NCBI GenBank assembly: GCA_942493375.1 | Contig: OW818698.1 | Coordinates: 5,032,568-5,096,567, forward strand | Direction of reading: 5' to 3' | Length of the DNA: 64,000 bases | Origin: Abditibacteriota bacterium | GTDB lineage: Bacteria; Armatimonadota; UBA5829 | In this document: positions 1,248 to 39,145 of the stretch, piece by piece | How the letters are laid out: every line of letters begins with the position of its first letter | Position numbering within the stretch: the stretch's first letter is position 1 | Translations under genes and position numbers: made by a program | The notes under the pieces: model-generated | Databases searched by the model: none | Told to the model about the DNA's origin: nothing | Seen by the model: the letters and a program-made list of their open reading frames with translations, nothing else

Positions 1248-4103
1248 CTAATCCAGCCCGCTGATTGCTATCAGGGTCGGACCGGCGGTGGTGTTGGTGG
1301 AGACCATTTCAATAGACTTGATCTCTTTTTCAGGATGGGGGTTGTCCCACTGTGCTCTCCACAGAGAAACTTTCTGCCCACTCTTTGTCCGACCATCCCA
1401 GATCTTGGTTGCTCCATTAAGAGAACGCTGGTCTATCCAGCTGTTGATATTCACACCATAGATTAATGGTACCTCTTCAACTGTGCCGTCAGCGTATCGG
1501 ATATTGTAGGCTCCTATTTTTGCACGTCCTTTTTCGGTCCAGGCGGAGGTATGCATGAAGAGTAGTGAACCTGCTTTTCTGTTCACTGCTATTTCAACTC
1601 TGTCCGGGTAACTCTGGTCGGTATCCAGCAGACTGCAGAGCCGTACCGCAGATGGTTTCGATGTATCTGCAGGCATTTTGATCAGATCGCCGTCCAACCG
1701 TACATCTCCAGTGGGAACTGATGACATATCATCTCCGGAACCAAGTCTAAGCCAGCCTGTTTTATTGTCATTATCCGCCAATGAAACGTTGTAGGCTGAG
1801 GAAAGATCAATTACAAAGCCCTTTCTAGCCAGCCTCTGCACTGGAGATGGATTCCACTGTTTGCGGAACTCATCATCCCACTTATAGGGCAGGTGATCGA
1901 TGTCTGTTTTGCCGCTGTTCCATGAGTATTCTGCAGCCAGAATCATCGCTGAGAACTGAATGAAGTTTTCTTTGAGGTTATTCTCGTTGCTGTTGAAACC
2001 GGCCCAGGTGGTCTGGAGAAGGCCTTCAGCCCCAACTTTCTTGACCTGAGCGGACAGGTGTTCAATATTCGCAGGAGTATACCAGGTTGCTCCGATTGTA
2101 TCATGTCCTGCTTTATGAAAGATGCTTACGGATTTGAACGTTTCCGGTTCATCAGGAGCATAGTGCCAGTCCGTTATTACTATATCCTTCGGGAGCCTGT
2201 CGCGGATCCATTTGGCTGCTTCAGGACTCTTTGCATTCATTGCGTCCGGGTCATCTCCACGGAACAGCATCATATCTCCCCACATCATTATCCTTGCACC
2301 GAGTTTCTTCAGGTGATTACGGATTTTCAGCACGTCATCGACGAATATCTGCTCTGCGCCTACCTTTTTACATGCTTCGTGTTTTGGGAAACCACCGGGC
2401 TCAACGACTTCATCGTGCCCGATATGGACCATTTTTGGATTTTCGAAGAGTTTTACTACTTCATCATAAAACGGCATCACATAACTATAGGTTTTTGGGT
2501 TCAATGGACAGTAAGAATAGGGCTTCTCAGGGCACTCTGCAATATCACGGTTCTTGCCGTTATTGAAAAGCCAGTCACTGTGTCCCAATGACTGCAACAG
2601 CGGAGAGACAGTAATGAAGTGCTCTTTGGCGTAAGCCAGCTCTTTCTTTATGTCTTCCTGGTCCATAGAGAAATCAACAGCCAGCGCCGGATCTGTCTTC
2701 CACTTCATGAAATCAGTTTCCAGGACCAGGTTGTTCATTTTGAAGCGTGAGAATATCCTGTCCATCAGTTTGTTGTGGAAAGGCAGCGCCTGGTTGCCGG
2801 TAAATAGATGGGCTCCCCGGAACTTGAGGCTGGGCCAGTCATTTATCAGGCAACCTTGCAGATATACCTTCGAAGGATCGTGCTTTAAAAGCTGCTTGAG
2901 GGTCTGCATTCCATAGTATGTACCCCTGCGGTCATTGCCAATTACCAGAACTTGCTCCGGAGTTGAACTAAGGATGTAGCTTTCCTCTTTTCTGGGTGCT
3001 CTGATTTTTGCCGTTTTTGCAGCCTGGGAGAGTTTCTTGTTGATTGAAGATTCACCGACCAGGATCAACGACTTTTCTTTTGTAACAACAGATTCCTTAA
3101 TAATCGCCGGTTCAAAACCATAGAGGATCTTTACTTCCTCGGCAAAGCTTTTAGCTCCTAAAAGGTCTTCACGTTTGGCTTTGTTTCCAACCACGATTTT
3201 AGTGGATTCATTCAACACGAAATCGCCGCTGGTCAGTTTCATCTGCTGAGGTTCAGGGATGACATAAACAGGCACAGAGACAGGAGCCCTTGCGTCCGGT
3301 TTATCTGCGATGGTTGTAGATTTTACATCGCCGGACTGAGTTATTACCGGTTTTGCACTCTGGGGTTCGATGGACAATATGTCCGTATGGGTATATTCCT
3401 TCCCGTATTCGAGGTGTATGCCCAGAATACCAGACCAAAAAATGGGTGTTGCATCGGCTGCTTCGTAAGGAGACATGCGGTTATCGAAAATATTGAGCCC
3501 GTCAGGATCACTTGACGATTCGAGTGTCAGTTTACCTATGCGTGACTGTATCTCGATTTTCTTTATCGCATCCGCAGTTATCAGTGTCTTTGCCATATCT
3601 GCACTTGTAGCATGCACATCCAGATTGCCCTCTTTTGTCTCTCCCTTTACAGTTGTGGCTTTGTATGCGCATCCAAAAATCGGTGCAGCTACGATGTTCC
3701 CGAAGCAGTATTCCATGTCAGCATCTGTAACATCCTGGGTTAGCTTGAATTTGAACTCGACACTCACTGAGTGTTCGGTAATAGTAACACGCTGGAACCC
3801 GAGGAATGACTCCGACTTATGAGTAATCAGGACTTCCTTGCCTCCAGGTATATCTTTTATCTGGACAGGGTCCTTGATGAACGGTAAACCATAGTAATGG
3901 TGTGACCAGAGGGGATTATGTACCCAGATACTGGAGTCTCTAATTAATTGGACTCCGCCATAGCTGACGCTCAAGCCATCAGAGCCACGGTTGAAACCGA
4001 CATTCATCTTGCCGACATCCAACCCAAAGTTACTCTGTGCCTGACTGATACCGGCTAACCCAAATATCAGGAGTAGTATGAGAACATAAACATTGAGGTT
4101 CAT
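1248..4103 (-). CDS. Secreted GH20-like glycoside hydrolase (beta-N-acetylhexosaminidase-like) with C-terminal accessory domains.
   Basis: N-terminal signal peptide MNLNVYVLILLLIFGLAGISQAQ. The motif DWPSLKFRGAHLF resembles the GH20 D-x-P-R-F-x-x-R-G start of the catalytic domain. HIGHDEV resembles the GH20 H-x-G-G-D-E motif. Length 951 aa. Confidence 0.55.
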   Translation of the reverse strand: MNLNVYVLILLLIFGLAGISQAQSNFGLDVGKMNVGFNRGSDGLSVSYGGVQLIRDSSIWVHNPLWSHHYYGLPFIKDPVQIKDIPGGKEVLITHKSESFLGFQRVTITEHSVSVEFKFKLTQDVTDADMEYCFGNIVAAPIFGCAYKATTVKGETKEGNLDVHATSADMAKTLITADAIKKIEIQSRIGKLTLESSSDPDGLNIFDNRMSPYEAADATPIFWSGILGIHLEYGKEYTHTDILSIEPQSAKPVITQSGDVKSTTIADKPDARAPVSVPVYVIPEPQQMKLTSGDFVLNESTKIVVGNKAKREDLLGAKSFAEEVKILYGFEPAIIKESVVTKEKSLILVGESSINKKLSQAAKTAKIRAPRKEESYILSSTPEQVLVIGNDRRGTYYGMQTLKQLLKHDPSKVYLQGCLINDWPSLKFRGAHLFTGNQALPFHNKLMDRIFSRFKMNNLVLETDFMKWKTDPALAVDFSMDQEDIKKELAYAKEHFITVSPLLQSLGHSDWLFNNGKNRDIAECPEKPYSYCPLNPKTYSYVMPFYDEVVKLFENPKMVHIGHDEVVEPGGFPKHEACKKVGAEQIFVDDVLKIRNHLKKLGARIMMWGDMMLFRGDDPDAMNAKSPEAAKWIRDRLPKDIVITDWHYAPDEPETFKSVSIFHKAGHDTIGATWYTPANIEHLSAQVKKVGAEGLLQTTWAGFNSNENNLKENFIQFSAMILAAEYSWNSGKTDIDHLPYKWDDEFRKQWNPSPVQRLARKGFVIDLSSAYNVSLADNDNKTGWLRLGSGDDMSSVPTGDVRLDGDLIKMPADTSKPSAVRLCSLLDTDQSYPDRVEIAVNRKAGSLLFMHTSAWTEKGRAKIGAYNIRYADGTVEEVPLIYGVNINSWIDQRSLNGATKIWDGRTKSGQKVSLWRAQWDNPHPEKEIKSIEMVSTNTTAGPTLIAISGLD

Positions 4104-4230
4104 TTAATAGCTCCACAGTTAAGATTAATCATACTGATTATTTGCCAAGTAAACGATTACCTAATTTTACCACAACTGTAGTATAATATTGCAAGAGATA
4201 TTGAAATATCTTGTAACAGTTCAAAGTCGC

Positions 4231-4370
4231 TGGAACAATGTCATCCTGAGTCCCCAAGTTGGGGGTGCCAACTTATTTCAATTAGAAACCTGTATTAGTC
4301 TTGGGAGGCCAAGTTGTGGTGCGGGCTTCTAGCCTGCGATCCCTTCGTTCCTCAGGATGACATTGTTCCA
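4231..4370. repeat. MITE/REP-like element with 20 bp perfect terminal inverted repeats (tggaacaatgtcatcctgag ... ctcaggatgacattgttcca).
   Basis: The terminal inverted repeats were read directly. The internal part contains cccttcgttcctcaggatgac, the same core found at 17108, 26284, 28756 and 35472. It lies in the divergent promoter region between the GH20-like gene and the LacI gene. Confidence 0.6.
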
Positions 4371-4454
4371 ATATTACTGATCTATTACAAAATCTTTCCT
4401 CATTCGATCAATGTAGTATAATTGACGGATACTGAATGATTGTGAGCTGAATAC

Positions 4455-5514: not shown

Positions 5515-7740
5515 CTAAAGTTTCTGTGGTGCAAGTTTTGGTTTGTTGTCTTTAGGTTCTTCCTGTTTGATTAGGCAGAACCTGTCAATCCAAACAGATT
5601 CCGCTGCCCCTGCGTCACCGTTTTGCCTGATCACCACCTCATATCCCTGGTTCATATCCTGCACACCCATATCGACAGCGACGTATTCATCCTTTTCAGT
5701 AGGTTCGCAGATGATCTGTTTAGCAACTAACACTGAGTTGGTAACACTGTCTTCGATACCGACTGAGCATACTCTGCCCGCAGCAAGCCCTGGTTTAACC
5801 CTCATGTAGACTACGCACTTATATTTGCCCATTACATTGACTGGAGCCCGCAAAATACCTGATGCGTCGGACTGACTCATCACAAGTGCTTTGCCATCCG
5901 ATGCATTTGGGTCATCAGTAATTACTATGCTATCAGAGCTTTTCAGAGCAAACCAGGTTTCCTGTCTATCAACCAATGTGCCTTCAATTTTCGGAGGCGA
6001 TGACGGACGGGGTGATGCCATCAGTTTAAGCGCATCGACCACTCTGTCCTGAAGCTCCATACCGGAAGCTGAGGCGGTATGTCTAAACGATTCAGCGGCA
6101 GTATCAGGATCTGCTGGTCCTGAAAATGGCATCTGGTATAATGCTGCTTCTGTGCGTAATTCCTTGTATCGCAGAAGCCACAGAGCATCCAGGAATAGTT
6201 TTTCCCTGACCACTCGCTGCTGGTGCACAGCATCGTCCGACACAGCTTTCAGTGCGGCATCCATCAATACCTGTGCGCGGTTCATTGCTGCAATATCCAT
6301 GAAAGAAAAATCTGTGTTACCCGGGCAGATATATACAGTGGATTTTCCCGCCAGCCCGTTAACCAGCATCAGGTATGAGAGTATGAATTTGCCTGCACGA
6401 CCGTAGAAACCGTCCGTAAACTGTTTCATCAGCTTCATTTCATCTGCCTGTGGGTCCCAGAGCAGTTCTGAAGCAAGCCACAGTCGCAGTTCTCTGAAAT
6501 CCACGGGTGTCTGAACTGATCCCATATCCAGCATCGCTCCTGAGACTTTATTTGCTGCCAGGTACCGGAGGGTTATCGGCAGGGAGAGTATGTTTGGATA
6601 GGGTAGGGGAAGTCCACCTGAGGATACAATCCGACCCTGGACCCATGACTGCGGGTAGATCAGCTGCCATCCAGCCATTGTTTTCTCGAACCGTTTGTTC
6701 CACTCAGGACCATCAGGATTGCCCAATGGTTTGGACATATCACAAGCGCCCAGATCCATGCTGAGGATAGCGCCTTTCTGGACCGTTATGTTTTGCGGGG
6801 CATCTCCCATCGCAGCACGGACAGGGATTACTAACTGGATTCCGGAGTACTGATTGTCGATGTAGGTGGCGATGCGGTTGGCGAATTGCACATATCCAGC
6901 AGAAGCAGTGGAGTATTTCTTCCCAAGTGCTCTGCACCAGGCACATTGGCAGGGCTTCTGAGTTTCTACTGTATTCAGATACACATAGCCTGCTCTTCGG
7001 GGACGATTGGGTCTGTTGGCTACTACGGCATCAAACCGGAGCTTACTGTCCAGGCTGTTGACCACCCAGTTGCACATTGTGTTGTCATTAGGACATATTC
7101 CGGGAGCTGGTTTGCCTGTCAGGATCCCGATGTGTGAACCCAGTTCTTGTGTAATATCCTGTGTTTTGCCATTTAATCTGAGCTGTGTAGCGAATAGTCC
7201 TACTGCGTTGTCTGCAGATATTCCACGGTAAGTGAATGGCGGGCAGTAGACATAATCCAGGTTTGGGACACTGATATCCGGTTTGTTGGGTATTATGATG
7301 TCTGATTCAGTCCACCACCTGCAGCCGATGACTCTCTCAAGGAATACACCGACGGCATTCATTGTCCCGCGATCTGTTGCTCCGGTGATGATCAATTTAT
7401 TGCCGATAGTCTTGATTAGAACTCCGTCAGATCCCAGCACACCCCATTCCTGGTCTTTCAACATAAACTCAACTCTGGGTGAACGCCCGACAAGTATCTG
7501 AGGCTCTGATGGATCGGAATTGGACTCCAATAAGGTTTTGAATTCAACTCCTGACACTTGCGATAGAGTCTGGGCCAGTTCGTTAGCAGCTGTCGTCGTC
7601 GCCTTGCCGGCAATATCCGCAGTCACAACCACGCACTGTGCCTCTCCCTCAGCCGATATAACAAACCCGGCACAACAAGCAGCCGAAGCCACAGCAAGCG
7701 CCAGGATAATAATCAATAAAATTTGAATGGTTTTCATCAC
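5515..7740 (-). CDS. Secreted DUF4838/GH20b-like putative glycoside hydrolase, a distant paralog of the tandem array.
   Basis: Signal peptide. GNKLIITGATDRGTMNAVGVFLERVIGCRWW parallels GNRLVLAGGRPRGTLYAVYHFLEDVMGIRWW in the array genes. It also carries the CQCAWC Cys motif. Confidence 0.55.
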   Translation of the reverse strand: MMKTIQILLIIILALAVASAACCAGFVISAEGEAQCVVVTADIAGKATTTAANELAQTLSQVSGVEFKTLLESNSDPSEPQILVGRSPRVEFMLKDQEWGVLGSDGVLIKTIGNKLIITGATDRGTMNAVGVFLERVIGCRWWTESDIIIPNKPDISVPNLDYVYCPPFTYRGISADNAVGLFATQLRLNGKTQDITQELGSHIGILTGKPAPGICPNDNTMCNWVVNSLDSKLRFDAVVANRPNRPRRAGYVYLNTVETQKPCQCAWCRALGKKYSTASAGYVQFANRIATYIDNQYSGIQLVIPVRAAMGDAPQNITVQKGAILSMDLGACDMSKPLGNPDGPEWNKRFEKTMAGWQLIYPQSWVQGRIVSSGGLPLPYPNILSLPITLRYLAANKVSGAMLDMGSVQTPVDFRELRLWLASELLWDPQADEMKLMKQFTDGFYGRAGKFILSYLMLVNGLAGKSTVYICPGNTDFSFMDIAAMNRAQVLMDAALKAVSDDAVHQQRVVREKLFLDALWLLRYKELRTEAALYQMPFSGPADPDTAAESFRHTASASGMELQDRVVDALKLMASPRPSSPPKIEGTLVDRQETWFALKSSDSIVITDDPNASDGKALVMSQSDASGILRAPVNVMGKYKCVVYMRVKPGLAAGRVCSVGIEDSVTNSVLVAKQIICEPTEKDEYVAVDMGVQDMNQGYEVVIRQNGDAGAAESVWIDRFCLIKQEEPKDNKPKLAPQKL

Positions 7741-7799: not shown

Positions 7800-7876
7800 C
7801 CGTTCGCCCTGAGCGCAGTCGAAGGACGCGGACTTACACAAACCGTTTCGTCTTTCGACTACGCTCAAGACGAACG
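7800..7876. repeat. Imperfect inverted repeat related to the CCTGAG..CGAAGG repeat family.
   Basis: ccgttcgccctgagcgcagtcgaaggacg ... cgtctttcgactacgctcaagacgaacgg. The arms are reverse complements with a few mismatches. The core cctgagNNNNNcgaagg is shared with the other elements. Confidence 0.45.
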
Positions 7877-7886
7877 GGTATCATTT

Positions 7887-7916
7887 CCTAAAGCCTAAAG
7901 CCTAAAGCCTAAAGCC
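7887..7916. repeat. Tandem heptamer repeat (CCTAAAG) x4.
   Basis: cctaaagcctaaagcctaaagcctaaagcc read directly. It is intergenic, between divergent genes. Confidence 0.7.
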
Positions 7917-8017: not shown

Positions 8018-10171
8018 ATGCGAAGATTTGCAGGATTGTTGATTTTATTGCTGGTTTTGTCTGGTTCAGTGGCAGAAGCACAGCAATATAATATACGGAT
8101 AAGCTCGAACGCAAAGTCTGTGGGTATCGGGAGGAGCGTTACAATTAATGCTCTGGTTACCGATATGAATGGAAAACCAGCAGCCGGGATAGAAGTTCAT
8201 CCCTATCGCAATGGCAAGCGGTGGGGTTCGCATGAGTTCACCGATTCTACCGGTCGCGCATCTTTTCCTGTTCCACTGCCTGTTATGGAAACCTCAAAGA
8301 TATCGGTAGCAGTGTGCCCAATGAAGCGAGAATTTAATGAGAAGTGGATATGGGCGGCAAACATCCGGGATAGTCAGACTGTGTATATGGTCAAGAAATT
8401 CGATGTGGCTAATGTTCAAGGCGCAAAACTGTGGTTCTCTGTGGATGACAGAGCCAGCGTATATTTGAACGGTGTGCTGGTCAAGGAGATGCATGGCTGG
8501 AATCCGGTTATTCCTGTCGATATCAAACCCGAGAGTTTCATTAAGGGAACTAACTCCCTGTGTGTAGAAGCCGAGAATGGTACCGGTCCTGCTGCAATGT
8601 TGTTGCGAATGGATTTTGCCGGCAATGATAAGGGCTCGATTGTATCCGATGAATCATGGACTGTTTATCCAACAAAACCAGCTTCATGGCCTTTGGCTCC
8701 GGATACTGCCGGAGAACGGACTCGTGTGGTCTTTGAAATCGGGCAAGCTATTTACAACCTGGAAAACTGGCCCAGCATACACTACACCAGGGTACGAAAC
8801 ACCGGCATGGAGATGCCCGAAGGGTGCAGCGTCTCAAACACTGTGTCAATTGATGTCCGCAATCGTAAGCTGGAGACCTTCAAGCGTGATGAGAAAAAGC
8901 TGATTGGCATGCAGTGGGAGGAATGGTTTACTCCACTGAATATCAACTGGTCTACTGCTCCGGCTGTTCCTGTTATGGGTTTTTATAGTTCATATGATCC
9001 GGATGTTGCCAGGCAGCACTTGATATGGTTCATTGAGTCGGGGATTGATTATTTATTGGTCGACTGGTCCAACAATATATGGTTCTCAAAGAGTTGGGAC
9101 GATGTTGGCAAAGGCACGTATGAACTTGATGATACCACAACTCTGATGATGGACGGACTGGTCAAGATGCGTAGCGAGGGTTATGTTGTGCCAAAAATGA
9201 CGTTCCTGATCGGTGTCAGTCACGTCCGACCAGAGGGCCCGAATGCGGTCAACGGCCAGCTCAAATATATCTGGGACCACTATGTGACCAATCCGAAATA
9301 TGACGGCCTCTGGCAGTATCTGGATGGTAAGCCGCTTATTCAGATATTGGATCTTGGCGCATCCTACGTAAGGGAGAACCTCAAACTTGATGACCGGTTT
9401 GCCATCAGATTTACAGGTTCTCAGCAGGATACACAGAAGCAGAATGAGCTTGGTTTCTGGACCTGGATGGACAGAGTCCCTGTTCCTACTCCTCCTACCG
9501 GCAAGACAGAGGCTCTTACTGTAAGCGCCGGCAGTTTCGGACAGGGAGGCTGGAAAGCTGCCAATGCGCGAGGACACCGTGGGGGGGCTACCCTTATAGA
9601 GGACTGGCAGCTGGCTATGAAATATCAGCCCGGATTTCTTGCAATCCACCAGTTCAACGAATTCGCTGGTCAGATAGAGGGCCAGCCCGCAGCTCCTCCA
9701 AACATGTATGTAGATTCCTATAGCGTAGAATTGAGTGATGACATAGAACCCACCTCCCTGAACACTCCTGCATATCGTGGAGACGGTGGCTGGGGTTATC
9801 TTTACCTAAACATGACCAAGGCTCTGGTAGACTTATATAAGGAAACAACACCAACGTCTACAGTTCTTGCAATCGCAAGTCCGCTCAGAAAGCAGGTCAT
9901 AACTGGGCCAACTGTCTATGTCACATGGCGGACAGTTGGAGCTGCTGCTGAATCATTCACAATATATGTGAACGATAAAAAAACAGCCTCAAACATAAAG
10001 GAAAATCATGCATTTATCGACCTGTCAAAATACAAAACAGGCCCAGTCCAAATAAGAGTCCGTGCAGAAGGCACCAAGACCCGCTACGTCCTGCACTACG
10101 AAAAAGATGCAGTCAGATTGAAAAATCCCGTACCAGCAGAGAGTTATGTAGATATAGAGCTAAAGCGATAA
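8018..10171 (+). CDS. Secreted hypothetical protein, putative carbohydrate-active enzyme (beta-sandwich plus TIM-barrel-like region).
   Basis: Signal peptide MRRFAGLLILLLVLSGSVAEA. RBS gaaggaag upstream. The family is not recognised with confidence. Confidence 0.5.
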   Translation: MRRFAGLLILLLVLSGSVAEAQQYNIRISSNAKSVGIGRSVTINALVTDMNGKPAAGIEVHPYRNGKRWGSHEFTDSTGRASFPVPLPVMETSKISVAVCPMKREFNEKWIWAANIRDSQTVYMVKKFDVANVQGAKLWFSVDDRASVYLNGVLVKEMHGWNPVIPVDIKPESFIKGTNSLCVEAENGTGPAAMLLRMDFAGNDKGSIVSDESWTVYPTKPASWPLAPDTAGERTRVVFEIGQAIYNLENWPSIHYTRVRNTGMEMPEGCSVSNTVSIDVRNRKLETFKRDEKKLIGMQWEEWFTPLNINWSTAPAVPVMGFYSSYDPDVARQHLIWFIESGIDYLLVDWSNNIWFSKSWDDVGKGTYELDDTTTLMMDGLVKMRSEGYVVPKMTFLIGVSHVRPEGPNAVNGQLKYIWDHYVTNPKYDGLWQYLDGKPLIQILDLGASYVRENLKLDDRFAIRFTGSQQDTQKQNELGFWTWMDRVPVPTPPTGKTEALTVSAGSFGQGGWKAANARGHRGGATLIEDWQLAMKYQPGFLAIHQFNEFAGQIEGQPAAPPNMYVDSYSVELSDDIEPTSLNTPAYRGDGGWGYLYLNMTKALVDLYKETTPTSTVLAIASPLRKQVITGPTVYVTWRTVGAAAESFTIYVNDKKTASNIKENHAFIDLSKYKTGPVQIRVRAEGTKTRYVLHYEKDAVRLKNPVPAESYVDIELKR

Positions 10172-10233
10172 TCCATAATCATGTCATCCTACTCAGTGAA
10201 GAATCAGATGATTCAAAGGTAAACATTAACCAT

Positions 10234-14340: not shown

Positions 14341-16941
14341 TTATGGTGTCATATCCTTCACATCTGCATTCTTCTGCTGCATTACAAGAGCGTTCACGCT
14401 GCGGGCCAATAGCATCTTGGGGATTTCAAACCAAACCACACTAGCAATTCCAGCTCCCACACAGGTTGCTGCCATTGCAGCATTCAAGTGTTTGAAACGG
14501 AAGATCTCGCGTAGAAATGGCACATACAGGACTAATCCCAGGAATACGAAAGCGCCGCCAACAACCCACCACATTGCTTGATTCTTAGAACGGAGAGTAG
14601 CAATAATGCTTCTTGACCATGATGCATTCGTTAATATGAGAGATATATTGGCGATTATCAAAGTCGTGAATGTCATAGTGCGGCAGTTTTTGTCATCCAG
14701 ACCAATATTCCGACCGATGATGAAGACTCCGAGGCACACAACTAATACACTCAATCCTTGCAGCATACTCATTATGACTGTGTGTTTGTCGAATATCGAT
14801 TCCTTCGGGTCGCGCGGAGGCCGTTTCATCACATTCGTTTCCCCTGGTTCTGCCTCGAAAACTGTAGAGCAAGCCGGGTCGATGATAAGTTCCATAAACA
14901 CAATGTGTATGGGAAGCAATATCAACGTCCAGTCAGCTATCACGGGGATTAGAGACAGACCTGCAATAGGTACGTGAACTGCAAATATGTAGGCCATTGC
15001 TTTACGCAGGTTATCGAATATCCTGCGTCCCATTCTGATCGCTGCAACGATCGATGAGAAGTCATCATCCAGCAGCACCAGTCCGGCAGCTTCACGCGCG
15101 ACATCGGTTCCTCGTCCACCCATAGCAACCCCAATATCTGAAGCTTTGAGAGCTGGTGCATCGTTAACACCATCACCGGTCATTGCAACAGTCTCGCCAT
15201 TAGCTTTGAGCGCCTGAACCAGCCGCAGCTTTTGCTCCGGCACTACTCTGGCGAAGACATTGACTCCTCCAATGCGTTGATTTAAATCCTCATCTGACAT
15301 CGCATTGAGCTCTTCACCGGAGATTATATGATCAGGATCTTTAAGCCCTATCTGTGTCGCAATATTGCGGGCAGTTGCGGGATAGTCTCCAGTGATCATT
15401 ACAACCCGGATACCTGCCTCATAGCACTCCTTCACAGCTCCTTGCACTGATGGACGCACAGGGTCAACCAATCCTACAAGGCCAATAAACTCGAAGTCGA
15501 AATCGTGCTGCTCTCCGGGGAGTTCATTTGATTGGGTGAAATGCGCTTTGGCTACACCCAGGACCCGGAGTCCATTCTCAGCCATTATTCCTATTTGAAC
15601 AGCGAGATCATTTTTCTGAGTGTCATTGAAGTGGCAAAGATCAGCTATAGCCTCGGGAGCGCCTTTGGTGGCGATAACGTAGTTCTCTCCCTTTGTAGAT
15701 TTCCATACGTGGGACATTGCCAGTAGTTCCTTAGACAAAGGATACTGCTGGACCAGAACCCAGTCCCCATGTATGTGCTCGGTTTGGGCCAGATGCTCTT
15801 CACCAAGTATGTGGAACGCCTTCTCCATCGGGTCGAACGGGTCACGCTGACTCGCTAATATACTGTATTCGATAAGGGCATGGAAGTCTTCAGGCAGAAC
15901 ATGCCCATCACCACTGATTATTGACAGGTGCTTGTTGTTTGCAAAAAGTTGCCCTACAGACATCTGGTTGAGTGTGAGTGTTCCGGTCTTGTCCACACAC
16001 AGGACAGTAGCCGAACCAAGTGTTTCTATTGCAGGCATTCGCCTGGTGAGTACATGCTTACGTGATATACGCCAGGCGCCAAGAGCTAGAAAAATCGTGA
16101 GGACTACCGGAAACTCCTCAGGTAATAGTGCCATTGCCAGAGCGACTCCAGCCAGAATGCCCTGTAACCAGTCTTCTCTGGTCAATCCGTAGGCAATGAC
16201 TACAATAGCGCTCATTGAACCACCAGTTATGGCCAGGTTGCGGACTAAGCGTGATGTCTGTTTTTCCAGCGAGGTTTTTTCTACAACAAGTGTCTGCAGG
16301 GATTTTCCGATCTTTCCGATCTCTGTGTTAATCCCTGTCCTCTGGATTTCTATCAGCGCCTGCCCCTGCACCACGAGTGTGCCTGAGAATACAAAGGGTT
16401 CGTCATCTCCACCAGGGCGCTGTATTGTCGAGTTCCCATCCCATTCACTCTTCCGCACGGGCATGGATTCACCGGTCAGCAGGGATTCGTCAACGGACAG
16501 GTTCAGGGACGAGAGCACTACTCCATCAGCCGGAACACGGTCTCCCTCTGAGATAATTACGGAATCTCCGCGCACAACTTCTCGGCCCGGTATTCGCTTT
16601 TCCTCACCACTACGGATCACACGTGCCCTGGGACTCGATAGATTCCTGAGGGCTTGAAGCGCATTCTCGGTCTTGCGTTCCTGATGAAGCGTGATACCTA
16701 TGACTACGAACACAAACCCCATCAGCAGAAGAGCTTCTTGTAAATCACCCAGCAGAAGATATATGATACCTCCGCCAACCAGCAGTAAAAACATCGGTTC
16801 GCGGATTACTTCGAATGCAATGGCAAAAATGCTGCGTGGTTTGGCCGATGGCAGCTCATTGGGGCCATCCGATTTTAATATTCTATCTGCATCATCGTGG
16901 GATAGACCAATAACATTCTTGATATCGAAGCCTTTTGCCAC
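14341..16941 (-). CDS. Cation-transporting P-type ATPase (P2-like).
   Basis: Phosphorylation motif CVDKTGTLT. Also VVMITGD and the hinge motif TGDGVNDAPALK. Cation-ATPase N-terminal domain. Length 866 aa with 8-10 transmembrane segments. Confidence 0.9.
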   Translation of the reverse strand: MAKGFDIKNVIGLSHDDADRILKSDGPNELPSAKPRSIFAIAFEVIREPMFLLLVGGGIIYLLLGDLQEALLLMGFVFVVIGITLHQERKTENALQALRNLSSPRARVIRSGEEKRIPGREVVRGDSVIISEGDRVPADGVVLSSLNLSVDESLLTGESMPVRKSEWDGNSTIQRPGGDDEPFVFSGTLVVQGQALIEIQRTGINTEIGKIGKSLQTLVVEKTSLEKQTSRLVRNLAITGGSMSAIVVIAYGLTREDWLQGILAGVALAMALLPEEFPVVLTIFLALGAWRISRKHVLTRRMPAIETLGSATVLCVDKTGTLTLNQMSVGQLFANNKHLSIISGDGHVLPEDFHALIEYSILASQRDPFDPMEKAFHILGEEHLAQTEHIHGDWVLVQQYPLSKELLAMSHVWKSTKGENYVIATKGAPEAIADLCHFNDTQKNDLAVQIGIMAENGLRVLGVAKAHFTQSNELPGEQHDFDFEFIGLVGLVDPVRPSVQGAVKECYEAGIRVVMITGDYPATARNIATQIGLKDPDHIISGEELNAMSDEDLNQRIGGVNVFARVVPEQKLRLVQALKANGETVAMTGDGVNDAPALKASDIGVAMGGRGTDVAREAAGLVLLDDDFSSIVAAIRMGRRIFDNLRKAMAYIFAVHVPIAGLSLIPVIADWTLILLPIHIVFMELIIDPACSTVFEAEPGETNVMKRPPRDPKESIFDKHTVIMSMLQGLSVLVVCLGVFIIGRNIGLDDKNCRTMTFTTLIIANISLILTNASWSRSIIATLRSKNQAMWWVVGGAFVFLGLVLYVPFLREIFRFKHLNAAMAATCVGAGIASVVWFEIPKMLLARSVNALVMQQKNADVKDMTP

Positions 16942-17107
16942 TGAGAATCTCCCTGGTTGTGTTGAGGACTTGCTTGCCTTGTCCTCTGTAGACCCACGAC
17001 AATAGGCCTGCTACCCGGTGGAGGACTGGGTAGCAGGCTTCTGGAGGCAGGTGAGTAATGTTGTTCAGTCCTATACGGTTCACTTAATATGACGATAAAC
17101 TGAGTGT

Positions 17108-17147
17108 GGAATTTGTCATCCTTCGTTCCTCAGGATGACAAATTCCG
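17108..17147. repeat. Short palindromic member of the GTCATCCT..AGGATGAC repeat family.
   Basis: ggaatttgtcatccttcgttcctcaggatgacaaattcc. The arms gaatttgtcatcct / aggatgacaaattc are perfect. Confidence 0.55.
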
Positions 17148-17190
17148 TAACCTTTTCCTGATTCCACTCACTAAGTGAACGGTATGTGGA

Positions 17191-17526
17191 CTAGTCGTCG
17201 CCGCCTAATCCTCCCAGAATATCTCCCAGCCATGATCCTTTGCGTTTACGTTCACCATATCCGCGTTCTCCGCCTTCACGACGGTCATTGTCTTTGTCGT
17301 ATTCCCTGTATTCGCGGCTGTGTTCATCACGCTTATCATATGGCCTGGCTGCTTCTGGTCTGGATGAACTCATTTCGGTCTTTGTTGTTTCGGAAACACT
17401 AAGCTCCAGTAACTTTTCCAGTTCGCCTTTATCCAGCCACACGCCTTTACAGCTCGGGCAGACATCCAGTGTCACACCATTCCTATCGACTTCTTTCATA
17501 CGATCTTCGCATACCGGACAATTCAT
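17191..17526 (-). CDS. Zinc-ribbon protein (TFIIB-type zf, PF13453-like) with a charged low-complexity tail.
   Basis: CPVC...CPSC plus GVWLDKGELEKL, the hallmark of the zf-TFIIB family. C-terminal R/E/D/G-rich tail. Confidence 0.6.
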   Translation of the reverse strand: MNCPVCEDRMKEVDRNGVTLDVCPSCKGVWLDKGELEKLLELSVSETTKTEMSSSRPEAARPYDKRDEHSREYREYDKDNDRREGGERGYGERKRKGSWLGDILGGLGGDD

Positions 17527-17544: not shown

Positions 17545-18225
17545 TCATATATTCGTGAAACGGGTTTTCTGTGCTGGGGGTTTCAATCTACCAATCTGTG
17601 TGTTCTTGCCGGTTTCGGTTACTACGAAGGTTCCTCTTCCACGAATGACCAACGTATTCATGAATACCCGATTTTGGTTCTCCTCAGACAGAACGGACTG
17701 GTCATTTAGTTGCAGAGCATGCTTTGTTACGGGTTCTGAGTTGCCCGATAACGTTTCTTCCTGCACTACCAGATTTATAGCTTCGGTTAAACGACCATCA
17801 GCGGGTATTGTTTCTCCGGCTTGTATTCTCACGATGTCTCCTGGTACCAGCTGACTGACAGCTAACTGCAGCAATTTACCTCCGCGTATTCCTGTGCATA
17901 CGCTGAGATACTGGCCCCCGGATGAGATCAGTGATTGCCTGTATCGTCTTTTCAAAACTGAAGACGCAATTATCATTACTACACTAAGAATAGCAAAGCC
18001 TAGCGCGAACAGCAGGTCATATTCAACTGCCAAAACGATTCCTATGGCTAAGCAGACCAAACCAGTTGATCTTACATGCTGGTAAAATAAATATGGACGT
18101 TCTAATTCGTTGGTCCCATATTTACGAAGACGATCATAGGCCTCAACCTCGGACAATCCATAGTCAGAGTCAGTTTTCAGATTCTTTAATATGTCTTGTA
18201 TTTCGGATTCCCCGCGGTTAAGCAC
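17545..18225 (-). pseudogene. N-terminal fragment of a second P-type ATPase (cation-ATPase-N plus actuator domain only).
   Basis: LSEVEAYDRLRKYGTNEL is the cation ATPase N-terminal domain. GETIPADGRL...LSGNSEPVTKH is the actuator domain. The ORF stops after 226 aa, before any DKTGT motif. The downstream sequence encodes an unrelated gene. Confidence 0.5.
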
Positions 18226-20470: not shown

Positions 20471-20771
20471 AAGAAACTTCAACAGGATGGACGCATCTAA
20501 TTTTGTACACGAGAGAATAGGCCGGGATATACTGCGGGAATGCCGGTTTTACTGGATGTTCCGAATCATGTCTATGCTCAATTCCCGCAGTATATCCCTT
20601 GGTTACTGTTTGCCCTGGCAACTTCACATAATTCCTCTCTCCCACATTCAATATCTACTACACAGTCTGCAAATATCCTTGACTCAAAAAGACTAGCTGT
20701 GCTAGAGTCTCGTACCAGTGGTTCCTAATAAAGGAATAATTCGGTAAGGTCCCACTAATCGGAGGCAGTAA

Positions 20772-26249: not shown

Positions 26250-26283
26250 TATAATAAGACACAAGATCCCACATCGTTCACGC

Positions 26284-26369
26284 GCCATTGTCATCCTGAG
26301 GAACGAAGGATCTGCTTTTTCAGTGAACCATGGTAAAGCAGATCCTTCGTTCCTCAGGATGACAATGGC
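26284..26369. repeat. Perfect 35 bp-arm inverted repeat of the GTCATCCTGAGGAACGAAGGATCTGCTTT family.
   Basis: gccattgtcatcctgaggaacgaaggatctgcttt ... aaagcagatccttcgttcctcaggatgacaatggc. Lies between paralogs 2 and 3. Confidence 0.7.
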
Positions 26370-26388
26370 GCATAATTGGAGTAAATAA

Positions 26389-28731: not shown

Positions 28732-28755
28732 TACCAGGTATCGTCATAATTACCA

Positions 28756-28837
28756 TGTCATCCTGAGGAACGAAGGATCTGCTTTTGGACATTTAGCTCA
28801 ACCATAAAGAGCAGATCCTTCGTTCCTCAGGATGACA
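28756..28837. repeat. Inverted repeat of the same family (28 bp arms).
   Basis: tgtcatcctgaggaacgaaggatctgct ... agcagatccttcgttcctcaggatgaca. Lies between paralogs 3 and 4. Confidence 0.7.
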
Positions 28838-28854
28838 ATTTTCGGAGGCAACAG

Positions 28855-31321: not shown

Positions 31322-32068
31322 ATGCACTATAGGATTAACACTATGCAATCCACAAACATGGATAAAAAAGAGAGATCAGTTGCATCGCAAGTCAGGAAGA
31401 TTATCTCTCAGTCGCCTGATAGCATCTGGACTTACACGGACTTTCATGATTTACCGCTTATGGCAGTTAGTCAGGCTTTGTCGCGGCTCCATCGAGAAGG
31501 AATGGTAAAACGGGTAAGAAAAGGGCTTTATTATCACCCAAAACAGACTGTTTTAGGTGAAAGTAGTGTTTCACCCGTTGCTTTGAGTTCGAAGCTTCTT
31601 TCCAGCGATGCCCGGCCTACTGGATATACTGCTGCACGGGTGCTTGGGTTAAACACCCAAGTTCCAGTTGAGCCGTCCTATGCGATTTCCAAGACTAAAG
31701 CACCTGCAAGCATAGCTGGTGTAAAACTGACTGTCCGTCGTCCTTTACCAACTCTCCATATAAGCACACGTGAAGCTGCTATCCTGGAGTTTTTGCGTGA
31801 AAGAGGGGAGACAAGTGAGTTGTCTCCCGAGAAGACCGTTAAAAGACTCCTGGATATTGTCAGAGAAACAGGAATATTCACCAACCTTACCGAAGCATCA
31901 ATGCATGACCCCCCACGAGTACGGGCTATGCTCGGGGCATTGGGGGAGGAAGCTAATAATGAACAACGAGAACTGATGAAGCTAAAATTATCACTCAACC
32001 CACTATCCAGGTATGATTTCGGGAGATTGAAATGTTTGAAATACGCTAAGGAGTGGCAAGCAAAATGA
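31322..32068 (+). CDS. abiEi: AbiEi-family antitoxin / transcriptional regulator (type IV toxin-antitoxin or abortive-infection system).
   Basis: Size and sequence resemble AbiEi/DUF6088 antitoxins. Its stop overlaps the downstream gene start in ATGA. The true start may instead be the Met at 31343. Confidence 0.55.
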   Translation: MHYRINTMQSTNMDKKERSVASQVRKIISQSPDSIWTYTDFHDLPLMAVSQALSRLHREGMVKRVRKGLYYHPKQTVLGESSVSPVALSSKLLSSDARPTGYTAARVLGLNTQVPVEPSYAISKTKAPASIAGVKLTVRRPLPTLHISTREAAILEFLRERGETSELSPEKTVKRLLDIVRETGIFTNLTEASMHDPPRVRAMLGALGEEANNEQRELMKLKLSLNPLSRYDFGRLKCLKYAKEWQAK

Positions 32069-33042
32069 TGCTACATGAGCATGATGATTTTGGCCCGATA
32101 TTGACCGAAGCGACTGCCTGGCTAAGGGGAAAACCTGGTTTTGAACGTATTACTACTCAGATTGTAGAGAAAGATTACTATGTAACTCAAGTATTGCGTA
32201 TTATCGCAGCTAAGCTGGGTGAAACAGTCCTGTTCAAGGGTGGTACAAGTCTTTCAAAAGGTTGGGGATTGATCCAGCGATTTTCTGAGGATGTTGATCT
32301 TTTTTTGAATCCGAAAGCTTTTGATCCTCCATTGGGAGAAAGCAGAATACAAAAGAAACTGCTTGAAATGAGAGATATAGTTGGAGGTAGGCAGGGACTT
32401 ACCTGGCTGCGAAATGACTCCAGAGTTGATAAAAAATCACGTGCCGATGTGTATTCCTATAATGCTAAGTATGAAATTAATTCCGAGATACCATCTGAAG
32501 TATTGATGGAGGCGGGCGTCAGGAGTGGGTATTTTCCCAGTGTGCAGGTGAACTTGGATTCTTATGTGGGAGAGTTTCTACGCAGTAAAGGTTTGGATAA
32601 CATTGCTGAAGATATCAGTCTTTTTCCAATGATGTTGTTGCACTTCAAACGCACTTTTATTGAGAAGCTGTTCACAGTATATTCCAAGGTAGAACTGATG
32701 TTGAATCATAATGAATCGAGTCTTGGTGACAACGCTAGACATTACTATGATTTGGTTCAACTCGCACGTACACCGGAGGTTCAGGAACTGTTAAGATCAC
32801 CTTATGAGATAGCAGAGATCATCGAAAATTATTATGCAATTACTCAGAAGCATTTTCCAAAAAGTCCACTTCCTGACACACACCGTCTATGTGATAGCAG
32901 GGCACTTTTTCCGGATAAGGACCTTAGGCATATCTTGGCAAATGCATACAAAATACAGTGCGATAGGCTATGTTATACGTACAATTACCCATCTTTTGAT
33001 GAGGTTTTAGGTGAGTTTGAGAAGATGCGTGAGTTTATATGA
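32065..33042 (+). CDS. abiEii: AbiEii/AbiGii-family nucleotidyltransferase toxin (DUF1814).
   Basis: KGGTSLSK followed by RFSEDVDLF gives the GS...DxD nucleotidyltransferase motif. The ATG at 32065 overlaps the AbiEi stop. RBS aaggag. Confidence 0.65.
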   Translation: MMLHEHDDFGPILTEATAWLRGKPGFERITTQIVEKDYYVTQVLRIIAAKLGETVLFKGGTSLSKGWGLIQRFSEDVDLFLNPKAFDPPLGESRIQKKLLEMRDIVGGRQGLTWLRNDSRVDKKSRADVYSYNAKYEINSEIPSEVLMEAGVRSGYFPSVQVNLDSYVGEFLRSKGLDNIAEDISLFPMMLLHFKRTFIEKLFTVYSKVELMLNHNESSLGDNARHYYDLVQLARTPEVQELLRSPYEIAEIIENYYAITQKHFPKSPLPDTHRLCDSRALFPDKDLRHILANAYKIQCDRLCYTYNYPSFDEVLGEFEKMREFI

Positions 33043-35398: not shown

Positions 35399-35471
35399 GG
35401 GTGGTTTTAACCGATTTCATGTTTTTGGACAGGATCAACAAGATTTTCAAGATTAACAGGAAGGGAATTGT

Positions 35472-35546
35472 TTGTAACAGTTCAGAGTTGCCGGAATTTG
35501 TCATCCTCAGGATGACAAATTCCCATGTTACTGTACTGTTACAATT
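35472..35546. repeat. Palindromic element of the TTGTAACAGTTCA...GTCATCCTCAGGATGAC family.
   Basis: ttgtaacagttcagagttgccggaatttgtcatcctcaggatgacaaattcccatgttactgtactgttacaa. The left arm matches 4211-4250. Confidence 0.6.
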
Positions 35547-35666
35547 GTTTAGCTTTATTTAGGGGTTGTGTCTTTGTTGTTGAATGGTTTGGTCTTAGAG
35601 ATTATGCTGCTGGGTAAATATTATCTCAGCACTGATGAGACAATTGAAAGGGTTTTTCATTTTGTA

Positions 35667-35700
35667 AATCCTGTTAATCTTGTTAATCTGTCAAAAAAAG
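35667..35700 (+). promoter_or_regulatory. Upstream motif shared with 38054..38096 (CCTGTTAATCTTGTTAATCTGTCAAAAAAA).
   Basis: Near-identical 35-40 nt motif 55 nt upstream of the 35755 start and 69 nt upstream of the 38165 start. Confidence 0.45.
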
Positions 35701-35754
35701 AATTGCAATATTTATCATCCGGGTGTGGTGTTGTAACTGCGAAAGGAACTGAAT

Positions 35755-38164: not shown

Positions 38165-39079
38165 ATGATTTGGGCAAATTTACTTCATTTAGGTCTTAAC
38201 ATGTGGTGTGACAGGTATGATCCTTCCTGGGGGACTACTGACATCACCGGAATGCCTCATATAAGGTTCGACATGGAACTCTGGGATGAACTCAAACCCA
38301 GGATGCGGGATGCAGGACTGAATATGGTTATCATCGACCTCGGGGAAGCCTTGAAATACAAGAGCCATCCCGAGATACCGGTTGCTGATGCATGGGAAGT
38401 CGATAAGTTAAAAGGTGAACTCGATCAGCTGCGGCAGATGGGACTTGAGCCTATCCCCAAACTCAACTTCTCTGCTACTCATGACCTCTGGCTTGGGAAG
38501 TATTCCAGAATGGTATCTACTCCGGAATACTATCAGGTGTGCGCTGATCTGATTAACGAAGTCAGTGATATCTTCGACAAACCCAGGTTCTTCCATCTGG
38601 GTATGGATGAAGAGCAGATCGAGCACTATGCAAACCACGAGTATGTAGTAATAAGGCAATACGACCTGTGGTGGCACGACTTCCTGAAGCTGGTTAGCAC
38701 CGTTGAAGCAAATGGAGCAAAGGCCTGGATCTGGTCCGACTATATCTGGAACCACCACGATATCTTCGCAGAGAGAATGCCAAAATCCGTCCTGCAGAGC
38801 AATTGGTACTATGGGGATGAGTTCGGTGAAGATGCACAGTATGTCAAAGCCTATCACGAGCTGGAGAAACTGGGATACGACCAGGTCCCCACAGGCAGCA
38901 ACTTCGGAATCCCAACCAACTTCGAGCTGACTGTCGACTACTGCTCCAAAATCATCTCCCCTGATAAACTAAAGGGTTTCATGCAGACCCCCTGGAAAGC
39001 GACCCTCAACCAATACAAAGACCACCACCTCGCAGCCATAGAGCAGGTGGAAAGAGCAAGGATAAAGTTGGAAGGTTAA
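38165..39079 (+). CDS. Putative glycoside hydrolase-like protein (TIM-barrel-type), cytoplasmic.
   Basis: Length 304 aa. RBS aaaggagat upstream. Followed by a strong hairpin. Family uncertain. Confidence 0.5.
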   Translation: MIWANLLHLGLNMWCDRYDPSWGTTDITGMPHIRFDMELWDELKPRMRDAGLNMVIIDLGEALKYKSHPEIPVADAWEVDKLKGELDQLRQMGLEPIPKLNFSATHDLWLGKYSRMVSTPEYYQVCADLINEVSDIFDKPRFFHLGMDEEQIEHYANHEYVVIRQYDLWWHDFLKLVSTVEANGAKAWIWSDYIWNHHDIFAERMPKSVLQSNWYYGDEFGEDAQYVKAYHELEKLGYDQVPTGSNFGIPTNFELTVDYCSKIISPDKLKGFMQTPWKATLNQYKDHHLAAIEQVERARIKLEG

Positions 39080-39085
39080 CCCCCT

Positions 39086-39145
39086 GGGCACGTTGAACCC
39101 CAGTTCGGCCCTTTCGGGCATGCCGAACTGGGGTTCAATGTGCCC
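39086..39145. terminator. GC-rich 24 bp-stem hairpin just after the stop codon.
   Basis: gggcacgttgaaccccagttcggc ... gccgaactggggttcaatgtgccc, with one mismatch. Confidence 0.5.

Follow-up and report, generated by a model that had tools for sequence, protein, structure and literature searches.

TGTC-tagged hairpin repeats in and around a tandem gene array of an Abditibacteriota bacterium, a probable family of REP-type elements

Among the repetitive extragenic palindromic (REP) elements of bacteria, those with a CGTC tag are the closest described counterparts of the repeats treated here. In their description (Di Nocera et al. 2013, PMC3733652) TGTC can stand in place of the CGTC tag, the stems of 8-9 bp almost always start with complementary A-T, the loops measure 4-5 nt, the tail is usually CCA, and most elements are head-to-head (HH) dimers, often heterodimers, with spacers of 20-100 bp. 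The same paper places them in Proteobacteria, Chlorobi, Bacteroidetes, Spirochaetes and Thermotogae, counts Neisseria dRS3 and Rickettsia RPE-4/RPE-6 among them, and gives no association with a transposase gene (PMC3733652, BMC Genomics 14:522). In a stretch of 64,000 nucleotides from an Abditibacteriota bacterium (contig OW818698.1, positions 5,032,568 to 5,096,567; hereafter the window), a palindromic repeat recurs between genes, two of its copies lying within an array of five DUF4838 paralogs. In this study I argue that these repeats are probably a REP-type family of non-coding, non-autonomous hairpins with the history proposed below, and that, judged by sequence, they very likely belong to the CGTC-tagged superfamily, here mostly in its TGTC-tagged form.

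Compared with that description, the present family shares the unpaired 5' CGTC/TGTC tag (published variants CGTC, TGTC and CCTC), A-T and T-A at stem positions 1-2, an overall stem length of 8-9 positions, and a majority of HH dimers, homo- or heterodimers, with comparable spacers and occasional clusters. It is likewise extragenic, mostly 3' of genes, and no flanked transposase was found in the loci examined; the Bacteroidetes example of the published set, Gramella forsetii, may carry this family or another. As tag, A-T foot, stem length, HH dimers, spacers, extragenic site and lack of an adjacent transposase all fit, I file the repeats as a further family of the CGTC superfamily. The GTAG-tagged REPs of the REPIN-RAYT system in E. 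coli and Pseudomonas (Nunvar 2010, Bertels and Rainey 2011, Quentin 2018; RAYT, REP-associated tyrosine transposase) also combine a tag with a hairpin at extragenic sites, and form inverted doublets foldable into one long hairpin, tandem clusters like those of bacterial interspersed mosaic elements (BIMEs), and collapsed 'double-foot' forms. However, their tag is GT[AG]G and not (T/C)GTC, no RAYT flanked by the present repeats was found in the loci examined, and REPINs are usually lineage-specific, whereas the present arm recurs across phyla. The REPs of the Bacteroidetes RAYT subclass 2.6 (Quentin 2018) are of the GCTAG-CGCGAGCG type, and were set aside as a different family. A full-text literature search with the core sequence found no relevant paper, and one on REPs in Flavobacterium and Bacteroidetes found nothing specific.

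The hairpin arm and its distribution

The 23-mer core GTCATCCTGAGGAACGAAGGATC occurs 6 times in the window at up to 3 mismatches, compared with 0.00 expected from shuffles, and the 9-mer CATCCTGAG occurs 10 times where 0.76 are expected. The core or its close derivatives are found at 4240-4363, 17108-17146, 26282-26371, 28755-28838 and 35493-35523, in a neighbourhood that comprises a GH20-like gene, LacI, the five paralogs and a P-type ATPase. A preliminary description, made from the letters of the window, had listed five repeat sites and called all of them intergenic; an inverted-repeat scan recovers every one with small coordinate corrections, and all do lie between open reading frames (ORFs). 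All arms in the window carry the TGTC tag.

The recurring unit is a single arm, composed of an unpaired (T/C)GTC tag, a 5-bp stem (A-T, T-A and three freely covarying pairs), an invariant tandem G.A/A.G in the context 5'-YGAR-3', 1-2 more pairs, a loop of 3-7 nt (occasionally much longer) and a C tail. The 5'-YGAR-3' context favours sheared G.A pairs. I tested this hairpin (AT-NNN / GA / 1-2 bp / loop / GA / N'N'N'-AT) on 55 different arms found in other genomes, almost all of which are partner arms and so unselected by the scan pattern. Stem cells are paired in 94.5%, a share that falls to 29-46% if the 3' side is shifted by 1-3 columns, and changes on both sides affect 64 cells compared with 20 in shuffles, a number reached by none of 500 shuffles. 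The central stem pair is UA in 16 arms, GC in 15, CG in 13, GU in 3 and AU in 2, while pair 1 is A-U in 48/55 and pair 2 U-A in 52/55. G and A are retained on both sides in 53-55 of the 55 arms, and C follows the stem in 52. The apical loop measures 3 nt in the variants met most often (G-GAA-C, AC-GCA-GT), whereas further variants have 4-7 nt. Among instances of the exact core the tag is TGTC in 140/149 and CGTC in 8/149, and the three bases after the tail C vary (ACA 53, TAT 20, TTC 9, others). The strong stem covariation together with the kept G.A indicates that every arm forms a conserved hairpin by itself. The window was scanned with a covariance model for the single arm (R1), whose scores are given in the table.

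Scanning one genome per species for the exact 23-mer returned at least 109 stretches, which shows the family to be multi-copy far beyond this locus; all counts for other loci given here rest on the matches listed by that scan. By record title, these are 88 Bacteroidota (including Flavobacterium, Mucilaginibacter, Pedobacter, Chitinophagales, Cytophagales and Bacteroidales), 13 Chloroflexota, 3 Gracilibacteria, 2 Armatimonadota, and one each of Verrucomicrobiota, Acidobacteriota and Gammaproteobacteria, at least seven phyla overall. Only 17 of 149 cores (11%) fall inside stop-free stretches of at least 150 codons, compared with 81% of random positions. Of 2.9 million viral contigs only 1 has the core, as a tandem cluster, so that the elements are chromosomal.

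An inverted partner usually follows 40-90 nt after the core. Neighbouring arms are arranged head-to-head in 89 cases, head-to-tail (HT) in 20 and tail-to-tail (TT) in 16, with spacers mostly of 10-69 bp. Under a strict arm definition, 60 of the 89 HH doublets are heterodimers of two variants and 29 are homodimers; the partner is often another variant, such as GTCATGCTGAACGCAGTGAAGCATC or GTCATTCTGAGCTTGCGAAGAATC, and each arm of a heterodimer is a perfect local hairpin. The arm and not the palindrome formed between arms is thus the conserved unit, and the long palindrome seen in the window is the special case of a homodimer. Single arms and tandem arrays are common as well, with tandem clusters in loci L002, L062 and L111.

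Two of these clusters are long and BIME-like, a whole doublet and its linker being repeated every 140 nt in a Flavobacterium (L002, 7330-7860) and every 110-112 nt in a metagenome-assembled genome (MAG) of Mucilaginibacter (L062, 4480-5610). The third, the sole viral match (IMG/VR contig L111, 9000-9520), is a cluster of heterodimers with a period of about 78 nt, whose units are nearly the same as those of the Anaerolineaceae locus L028.

Turnover in the paralog array and alternative explanations

The best homolog of paralog 3, at 88% identity, is encoded on a 200-kb metagenome contig (L110) which shares the five-paralog array of the window. Between the window and L110 orthologous paralogs are 82-89% identical in DNA, paralogs within one genome 66-72%. 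When R1 was run over the paralog spacers of L110 no arm scored. The spacer between paralogs 2 and 3, where the window has the 26282 element, holds a decayed arm adjoining a GCAGGCTTCCAGCCTGC hairpin and lacks that element; the next spacer (3-4) holds a different inverted-repeat element, TTGACAGGATTAACAGGAT..., of the family that bounds the window block 35415-35713. This block is itself missing from L110 at the orthologous position (window 35414-35714 vs L110 17299-17329), and spacer conservation is confined to 25-35 nt before each start codon. As L110 has the array without these arms, the arms would be recent arrivals or replacements in an older array. This comparison is the best evidence here for mobility or rapid turnover.

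Other differences and features of the array were seen in passing. The spacer between paralogs 4 and 5 of L110 (14845-14965) holds a third palindromic element, CCCCCTTTGAAGGGGGGTTAGGGGGGATGTGA ... TCACATCCCCCTACCCCCTTCAAAAGGGGG. Between the same paralogs the window has a DUF6088 and AbiEii pair (31322-33042; type IV toxin-antitoxin, AbiE-like), where L110 has no more than 189 bp of spacer, so that the two arrays differ here by an insertion or a deletion. The nearest named protein homologs for the locus are from Verrucomicrobiota and Armatimonadota MAGs, at 40-53% identity.

Could the hairpins be functional RNAs (terminators, attenuators or mRNA stabilisers) selected at each site, and not mobile DNA? 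They are extremely stable and directly follow stop codons: the two homodimers of the window lie 6-33 nt past a stop codon, and the next start is 17-18 nt away. In other genomes at least one gene 3' end adjoins 46/52 doublets (19 convergent, 27 co-directional and 6 divergent gene pairs), and mRNA stabilisation and transcription termination are known for REP elements (PMC6006769). However, the arms are missing from the orthologous spacers of a close relative, two window copies (4211, 7800) lie in divergent promoter regions, and single arms show no orientation bias. Neither homodimer in 26000-29100 matches the intrinsic-terminator consensus or has a T-run (tails AATGGCGCAT and AATTTTCGG), and with Rfam 15 no match reaches the gathering threshold in the whole window, 26282-26371 giving only sub-threshold look-alikes of miRNA hairpins. 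I therefore consider this explanation improbable, and an RNA role is quite possibly a consequence of the elements and not what gave rise to them. A reading of GUC...CUGAG...CGAA as a hammerhead or other small ribozyme was also tried and rejected, there being no room for a CUGANGA core or three-way junction and no Rfam match.

The REP-type reading also has to be weighed against that of classical miniature inverted-repeat transposable elements (MITEs), deletion derivatives of DDE-type insertion sequences (IS) whose terminal inverted repeats serve for recognition and which move by cut-and-paste, duplicating the target site. Those such as Correia/NEMIS or ERIC resemble the present elements in being intergenic, 80-180 bp long, bounded by terminal inverted repeats and co-transcribed with neighbouring genes; the copies at 4211-4390 and 35472-35544 have terminal inverted repeats of 20-40 bp and MITE-like sizes, related copies occupy non-orthologous sites of a related genome, and the Flavobacterium copies have a conserved spacer of about 50 nt in common. 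Yet no direct target duplications were found at the doublets, whose flanks are complementary and not direct (T/TT/TTT vs A/AA/AAA). This complementarity outside the tag spans 1-3 nt in 108/126 doublets elsewhere and up to 10 nt in a few; in the window it extends over 8-9 nt for the copies at 26290 and 4240, and over 7 nt (GGAATTT) for those at 17108 and 35493. Furthermore, what is conserved is a local hairpin with a covarying stem and an unpaired tag; in two thirds of the doublets the arms are unlike and compensatory change keeps the hairpin of each intact, for which a protein that reads inverted repeats in double-stranded form would have no need. As single arms and tandem arrays are common, and no IS with such ends was seen in the loci examined, a MITE origin appears quite improbable.

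Another possibility named in the preliminary description is that the repeats are recombination substrates which drive the tandem duplications, here those of the DUF4838 array. Two perfect copies do sit exactly in paralog spacers; nevertheless the array of L110 is the same with other palindromes in its spacers, so that the arms did not drive the duplications, arms occur in only 2/4 spacers of the window, and at 66-72% identity between paralogs the duplications must be old, yet the arms are identical. This proposal is very hard to maintain. Equally implausible are sites of a double-stranded regulatory protein, e.g. a palindromic operator common to glycoside-hydrolase genes: the repeats are palindromic and one lies in the LacI-divergent region, but the same sequence stands by unrelated genes in at least seven phyla, covariation keeps the pairing and not the sequence, and the elements far exceed operator length.

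A mobilising enzyme and the proposed history

The proposal of REP-type repeats, already made in the preliminary description, is thus the one that the evidence supports. In the history that I suggest, the arms would act as single-stranded hairpins, copied or moved by a trans-acting enzyme encoded away from them, most likely one of HUH/Y1-like type acting on single-stranded DNA (ssDNA). In the source genome they would have settled in 3' intergenic regions, among these the spacers of a tandem gene array older than themselves. Deletion between short direct repeats would then have collapsed some of the long palindromes (17108, 35493), and one palindrome would have become the target of a second mini-element that inserts into the loop after CTGAG (4252-4338). 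When transcribed, the perfect hairpins of 31-37 bp (26282, 28755) should act as 3'-end barriers or partial terminators between co-directional paralogs. By analogy with REPs and BIMEs they should block 3' exonucleases or partly terminate transcription, and might in this way uncouple the expression of adjacent paralogs. That the arms moved via an ssDNA enzyme is possible, though on balance doubtful.

Several observations weigh against this reading. I searched for Y1 transposases with a motif scan and phmmer in all ORFs of the 109 loci, the window, L110 and L111, using IS200 and IS608 TnpA sequences as queries. A cognate RAYT, which the preliminary description had advised looking for, did not appear: no RAYT-like ORF is linked to arms in the window, L110 or the 109 loci among the matches listed, a weak search in that it covered these stretches of the genomes. 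A single Y1_Tnp-like gene was found, in Mucilaginibacter (L058 7475-7936, 153 aa, signature DHIH...Y...Q..HH), but no TGTC arm adjoins this gene or its L112 ortholog; the hairpins flanking both are of the GGAGGCACCTACGGAGCC type. In contrast to the CGTC-tagged REPs as published, stem positions 6-7 are here an invariant tandem G.A/A.G and never Watson-Crick, so that the stem is not fully paired; the loop, with 3-7 nt and occasionally many more, agrees only in part with the published 4-5 nt; the tail is C plus variable bases and not CCA; and the distribution, among the matches listed, is centred on Bacteroidota and Chloroflexota and not on Alphaproteobacteria. The non-Bacteroidota records are mostly MAGs, and copy counts for the source organism cover the 64-kb window. 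No empty site with clean boundaries was obtained and no target duplication is defined, so that the arms may have come in by insertion or by gradual replacement. Finally, exceptions in the stem are about equally G.T (14) and A.C (10), and single arms have no significant orientation bias relative to flanking co-directional genes (14 vs 8), which favours neither an RNA role nor a strand-specific DNA role.

The Y1_Tnp gene itself has the signature of Quentin's subclass 1.2, and in Mucilaginibacter it is 80-88% conserved in fixed synteny directly after pyrD. It has the appearance of a domesticated, REPtron-like locus belonging to another family of hairpins, a structure without which subclass 1.2 has been reported (Quentin 2018). 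Repeated GGAGGCACCTACGGAGCC / GGCTCCGTAGGTGCCTCC hairpins and a length-variable non-coding stretch follow the gene; the corresponding coordinates in L112 are 3001-3462 and 3462-4040.

A wider reading, which I regard as rather unlikely, would make the (T/C)GTC tag and tandem-G.A hairpin the substrate of an unrecognised, widely conserved trans-acting ssDNA enzyme (an orphan HUH/Y1 or other nuclease/recombinase). The arms would then be a pan-phylum REPIN-like replicator, maintained vertically and horizontally, with the hairpin extruded in vivo and its loop a landing site for an IS200/IS605-like mini-element. If true, such an enzyme would answer why CGTC REPs have no adjacent transposase. The CGTC-tagged half of REPs is without a known mobilising enzyme, and the present family offers a handle on that question by its clean signature (tag, covarying stem, invariant tandem G.A), its presence in many phyla including cultivable Flavobacterium and Mucilaginibacter, and a second element that reads its loop. 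REP-type repeats can account for a sizeable share of the DNA between genes; they can also influence operon expression, and other mobile DNA can use them as landing pads. For the window, they explain spurious small ORFs, mark recent intergenic turnover and probably separate the transcripts of the tandem glycoside-hydrolase-like paralogs, an array they did not create.

Elements of the window and the insert in the hairpin loop

Table. Repeat elements and related features of the window; empty cells, no entry.
Feature	Coordinates	Strand	Composition	Setting	Scores
Intact tag-outward (HH) homodimer	26282..26371		arms 26288-26317 (+) and 26336-26365 (-); two TGTC-tagged tandem-GA hairpins, 16-nt spacer; perfect 37-nt inverted repeat 26282-26318 / 26335-26371, running 8 nt past the tag (GCGCCATT)	between DUF4838 paralog 2 (stop 26249) and paralog 3 (start 26389)	R1 41.6 bits per arm; RNA fold -77.4 kcal/mol, z = -15
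Intact HH homodimer	28755..28838		arms 28755-28784 (+) and 28809-28838 (-); 20-nt spacer; 31-nt inverted repeat 28756-28786 / 28807-28837, 97%	between paralog 3 (stop 28731) and paralog 4 (start 28855)	R1 39.1 and 41.1 bits; RNA fold -57.5 kcal/mol, z = -13
Composite element, about 180 bp	4211..4390		outer inverted repeat formed by TTGTAACAGTTCAAAGT (4211-4227) and ACTGATCTATTACAA (4376-4390); within it a perfect inverted repeat of 20 bp, 4231-4250 / 4351-4370; half of a left arm (GTCATCCTGAG, 4240-4250) and a complete right arm, 4334-4363 (-)	divergent region, GH20-like gene (start 4103) / LacI (4455)	R1 24.9 bits (right arm)
Second mini-element, 3'-truncated copy	4252..4338	+		within the left-arm loop of the 4211 composite, directly after CTGAG	
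Collapsed 'double-foot' derivative	17108..17146		GGAATTTGTCATCCT-tcgttcctc-AGGATGACAAATTCC	3' of a small zinc-ribbon ORF, upstream of the P-type ATPase	R1 33.2 bits (minus strand)
Long-arm subfamily member, more collapsed	35472..35544		outer TTGTAACAGT...ACTGTTACAA around GGAATTTGTCATCCT-c-AGGATGACAAATTCC (35493-35523)	inside the block 35415-35713 (about 270 bp)	
Decayed single arm	10181..10210	+	catGTCATCCTACTCAGTGAAGAATCag	directly after the stop of ORF 8018..10171	R1 19.7 bits, E = 0.004
Tag-outward hairpin pair, other family	7800..7877		CCGTTCGCCCTGAGCGCAGTCGAAGGAC ... GTCTTTCGACTACGCTCAAGACGAACGG	divergent region 5515..7740(-) / 8018..10171(+)	RNA fold -44.2 kcal/mol, z = -6.7
Core matches, up to 3 mismatches	4339-4361(-), 17117-17139(-), 26290+, 26341-, 28757+, 28814-				

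Some entries depart from the preliminary description. The 26284..26369 element had been given perfect arms of 35 bp, which are indeed perfect and somewhat longer (table), and the copy at 4231..4370, although its 20-nt inverted repeat is perfect, is no simple MITE; it is a composite of an arm pair and an inserted mini-element. The longer left arm said to be shared by the 4211 and 35472 copies is present at both and nowhere else (TTGTAACAGTTCARAGT), and the right ends of the two elements match as well (ACTGATCTATTACAA, and ACTGTACTGTTACAA at 35530-35544), which places them in the same long-arm subfamily. The diverged relative placed at 7800..7876 has the ..YTGAG-loop-CGAAR.. core (stem-GA-loop-GA-stem) of the TGTC arms. 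On the other hand its tag is CCGTTCG, R1 does not detect it, and its core was matched only once in other loci among the matches listed; it is a relative of the TGTC family at the level of architecture only.

The two collapsed copies have 15-nt pairs with GGAATTTGTCATCCT in common (17108-17122 / 17132-17146 and 35493-35507 / 35509-35523), and correspond to the double-foot REPs, which Quentin et al. explain by a central deletion within a dimer. The sequence of 17108-17146, GTCATCCT joined to TCGTTCCTCAGGATGAC, is exactly the product expected from a deletion between the ATCCT of an arm and that of an inverted arm, and this copy is presumably the remnant of an HH dimer after deletion between two ATCCT direct repeats. 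The 35493-35523 copy (GTCATCCT joined to CAGGATGAC) could reflect a further deletion between TCCT repeats. The copies at 4240, 17108 and 35493 are each central within further inverted repeats, at 17108 formed by 17073-17086 with 17172-17185. Such nested palindromes suggest either insertion at the apex of existing palindromes, or the outward perfection of a palindrome via template switching.

The insert in the loop of the 4211 composite is a copy of a mini-element of about 105-125 nt with a 5' hairpin CCCCAAGTTGGGG, a conserved TGCCAACTTATTTCAATTAGAAACC and a hairpin GCGGGCTTCTAGCCTGC. The interior of 4231-4370 is 76% identical to L110 7332-7449, a non-orthologous site, and 7 copies, on different long contigs from two samples, turned up in a metagenome scan for the conserved interior. 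On different contigs (L122, L123, L126 and probably L121) an insert of about 105 nt, CCCCCAAGTTGGGGG-TGCCAACTTATTTCGATTAGAAACC-...-CCTAA..TTAGGAG, splits a single arm directly after ..CTGAG. Its removal restores a CCT/AGG or TCT/AGA arm with the loop GGAAC, GCTTGTC or GGAAT; the restored arm is perfect in L122 and L126, whereas L123 keeps the downstream half-arm only. Another, partial copy with a 3' hairpin of the window type ends in TCTTAGGAG, followed by the remainder of a decayed arm. In the window the insert has lost its 3' part and is joined to the inverted right arm.

The insert lacks terminal inverted repeats; hairpins are predicted near both of its ends, and Rfam gives no match for it. 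It resembles miniature elements derived from IS200/IS605, which insert into ssDNA 3' of a short fixed sequence without duplication, although no parent element was found. A 3-nt duplication of GAG, or another mechanism, is a further possibility. IS1397/ISKpn1 (IS3 family) and IS621, ISPpu9/10 and ISPa11 (IS110 family) reportedly insert specifically into REP hairpins. Here, too, a repeat hairpin is a specific target, hit after CTGAG by several independent copies, but the insert is tiny and non-coding with subterminal hairpins, and thereby closer to IS200/IS605 miniatures than to IS3 or IS110 elements.

The block around the 35472 element is bounded by arms of another repeat family (GACAGGATCAACAAGAT...; the GACAGGAT family). 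This separate inverted-repeat family, (T)TGACAGGAT(T/C)AACA(G/A)GAT... with ...ATCTTGTTAATC(C)TGTCAA, was noted at 35425-35465 and 35660-35700 of the window, where it bounds the block, and at 12346-12415 of L110, where it fills the spacer between paralogs 3 and 4. Adjoining the 7800 pair is a short tandem repeat (CCTAAAG/AAGCCTA, about 4.5 copies, 7884-7916), followed by a C-run. Directly after ORF 38165..39079 lies an inverted repeat with 24-nt arms, 96% complementary (GGGCACGTTGAACCCCAGTTCGGC / GCCGAACTGGGGTTCAATGTGCCC, 39086-39145), unrelated in sequence to the TGTC family, and a perfect 18-nt inverted repeat (GGGATATACTGCGGGAAT, 39-nt spacer, 20524-20598) separates a histidine kinase gene from paralog 1. 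The small zinc-ribbon ORF next to the 17108 element (about 17192-17525, minus strand) separates that element from a 226-aa ORF (17545-18225, minus strand) with only the N-terminal and actuator parts of a P-type ATPase; at 34% identity to the full-length ATPase 14341-16941, this 226-aa ORF is a truncated second gene and not a recent duplicate.

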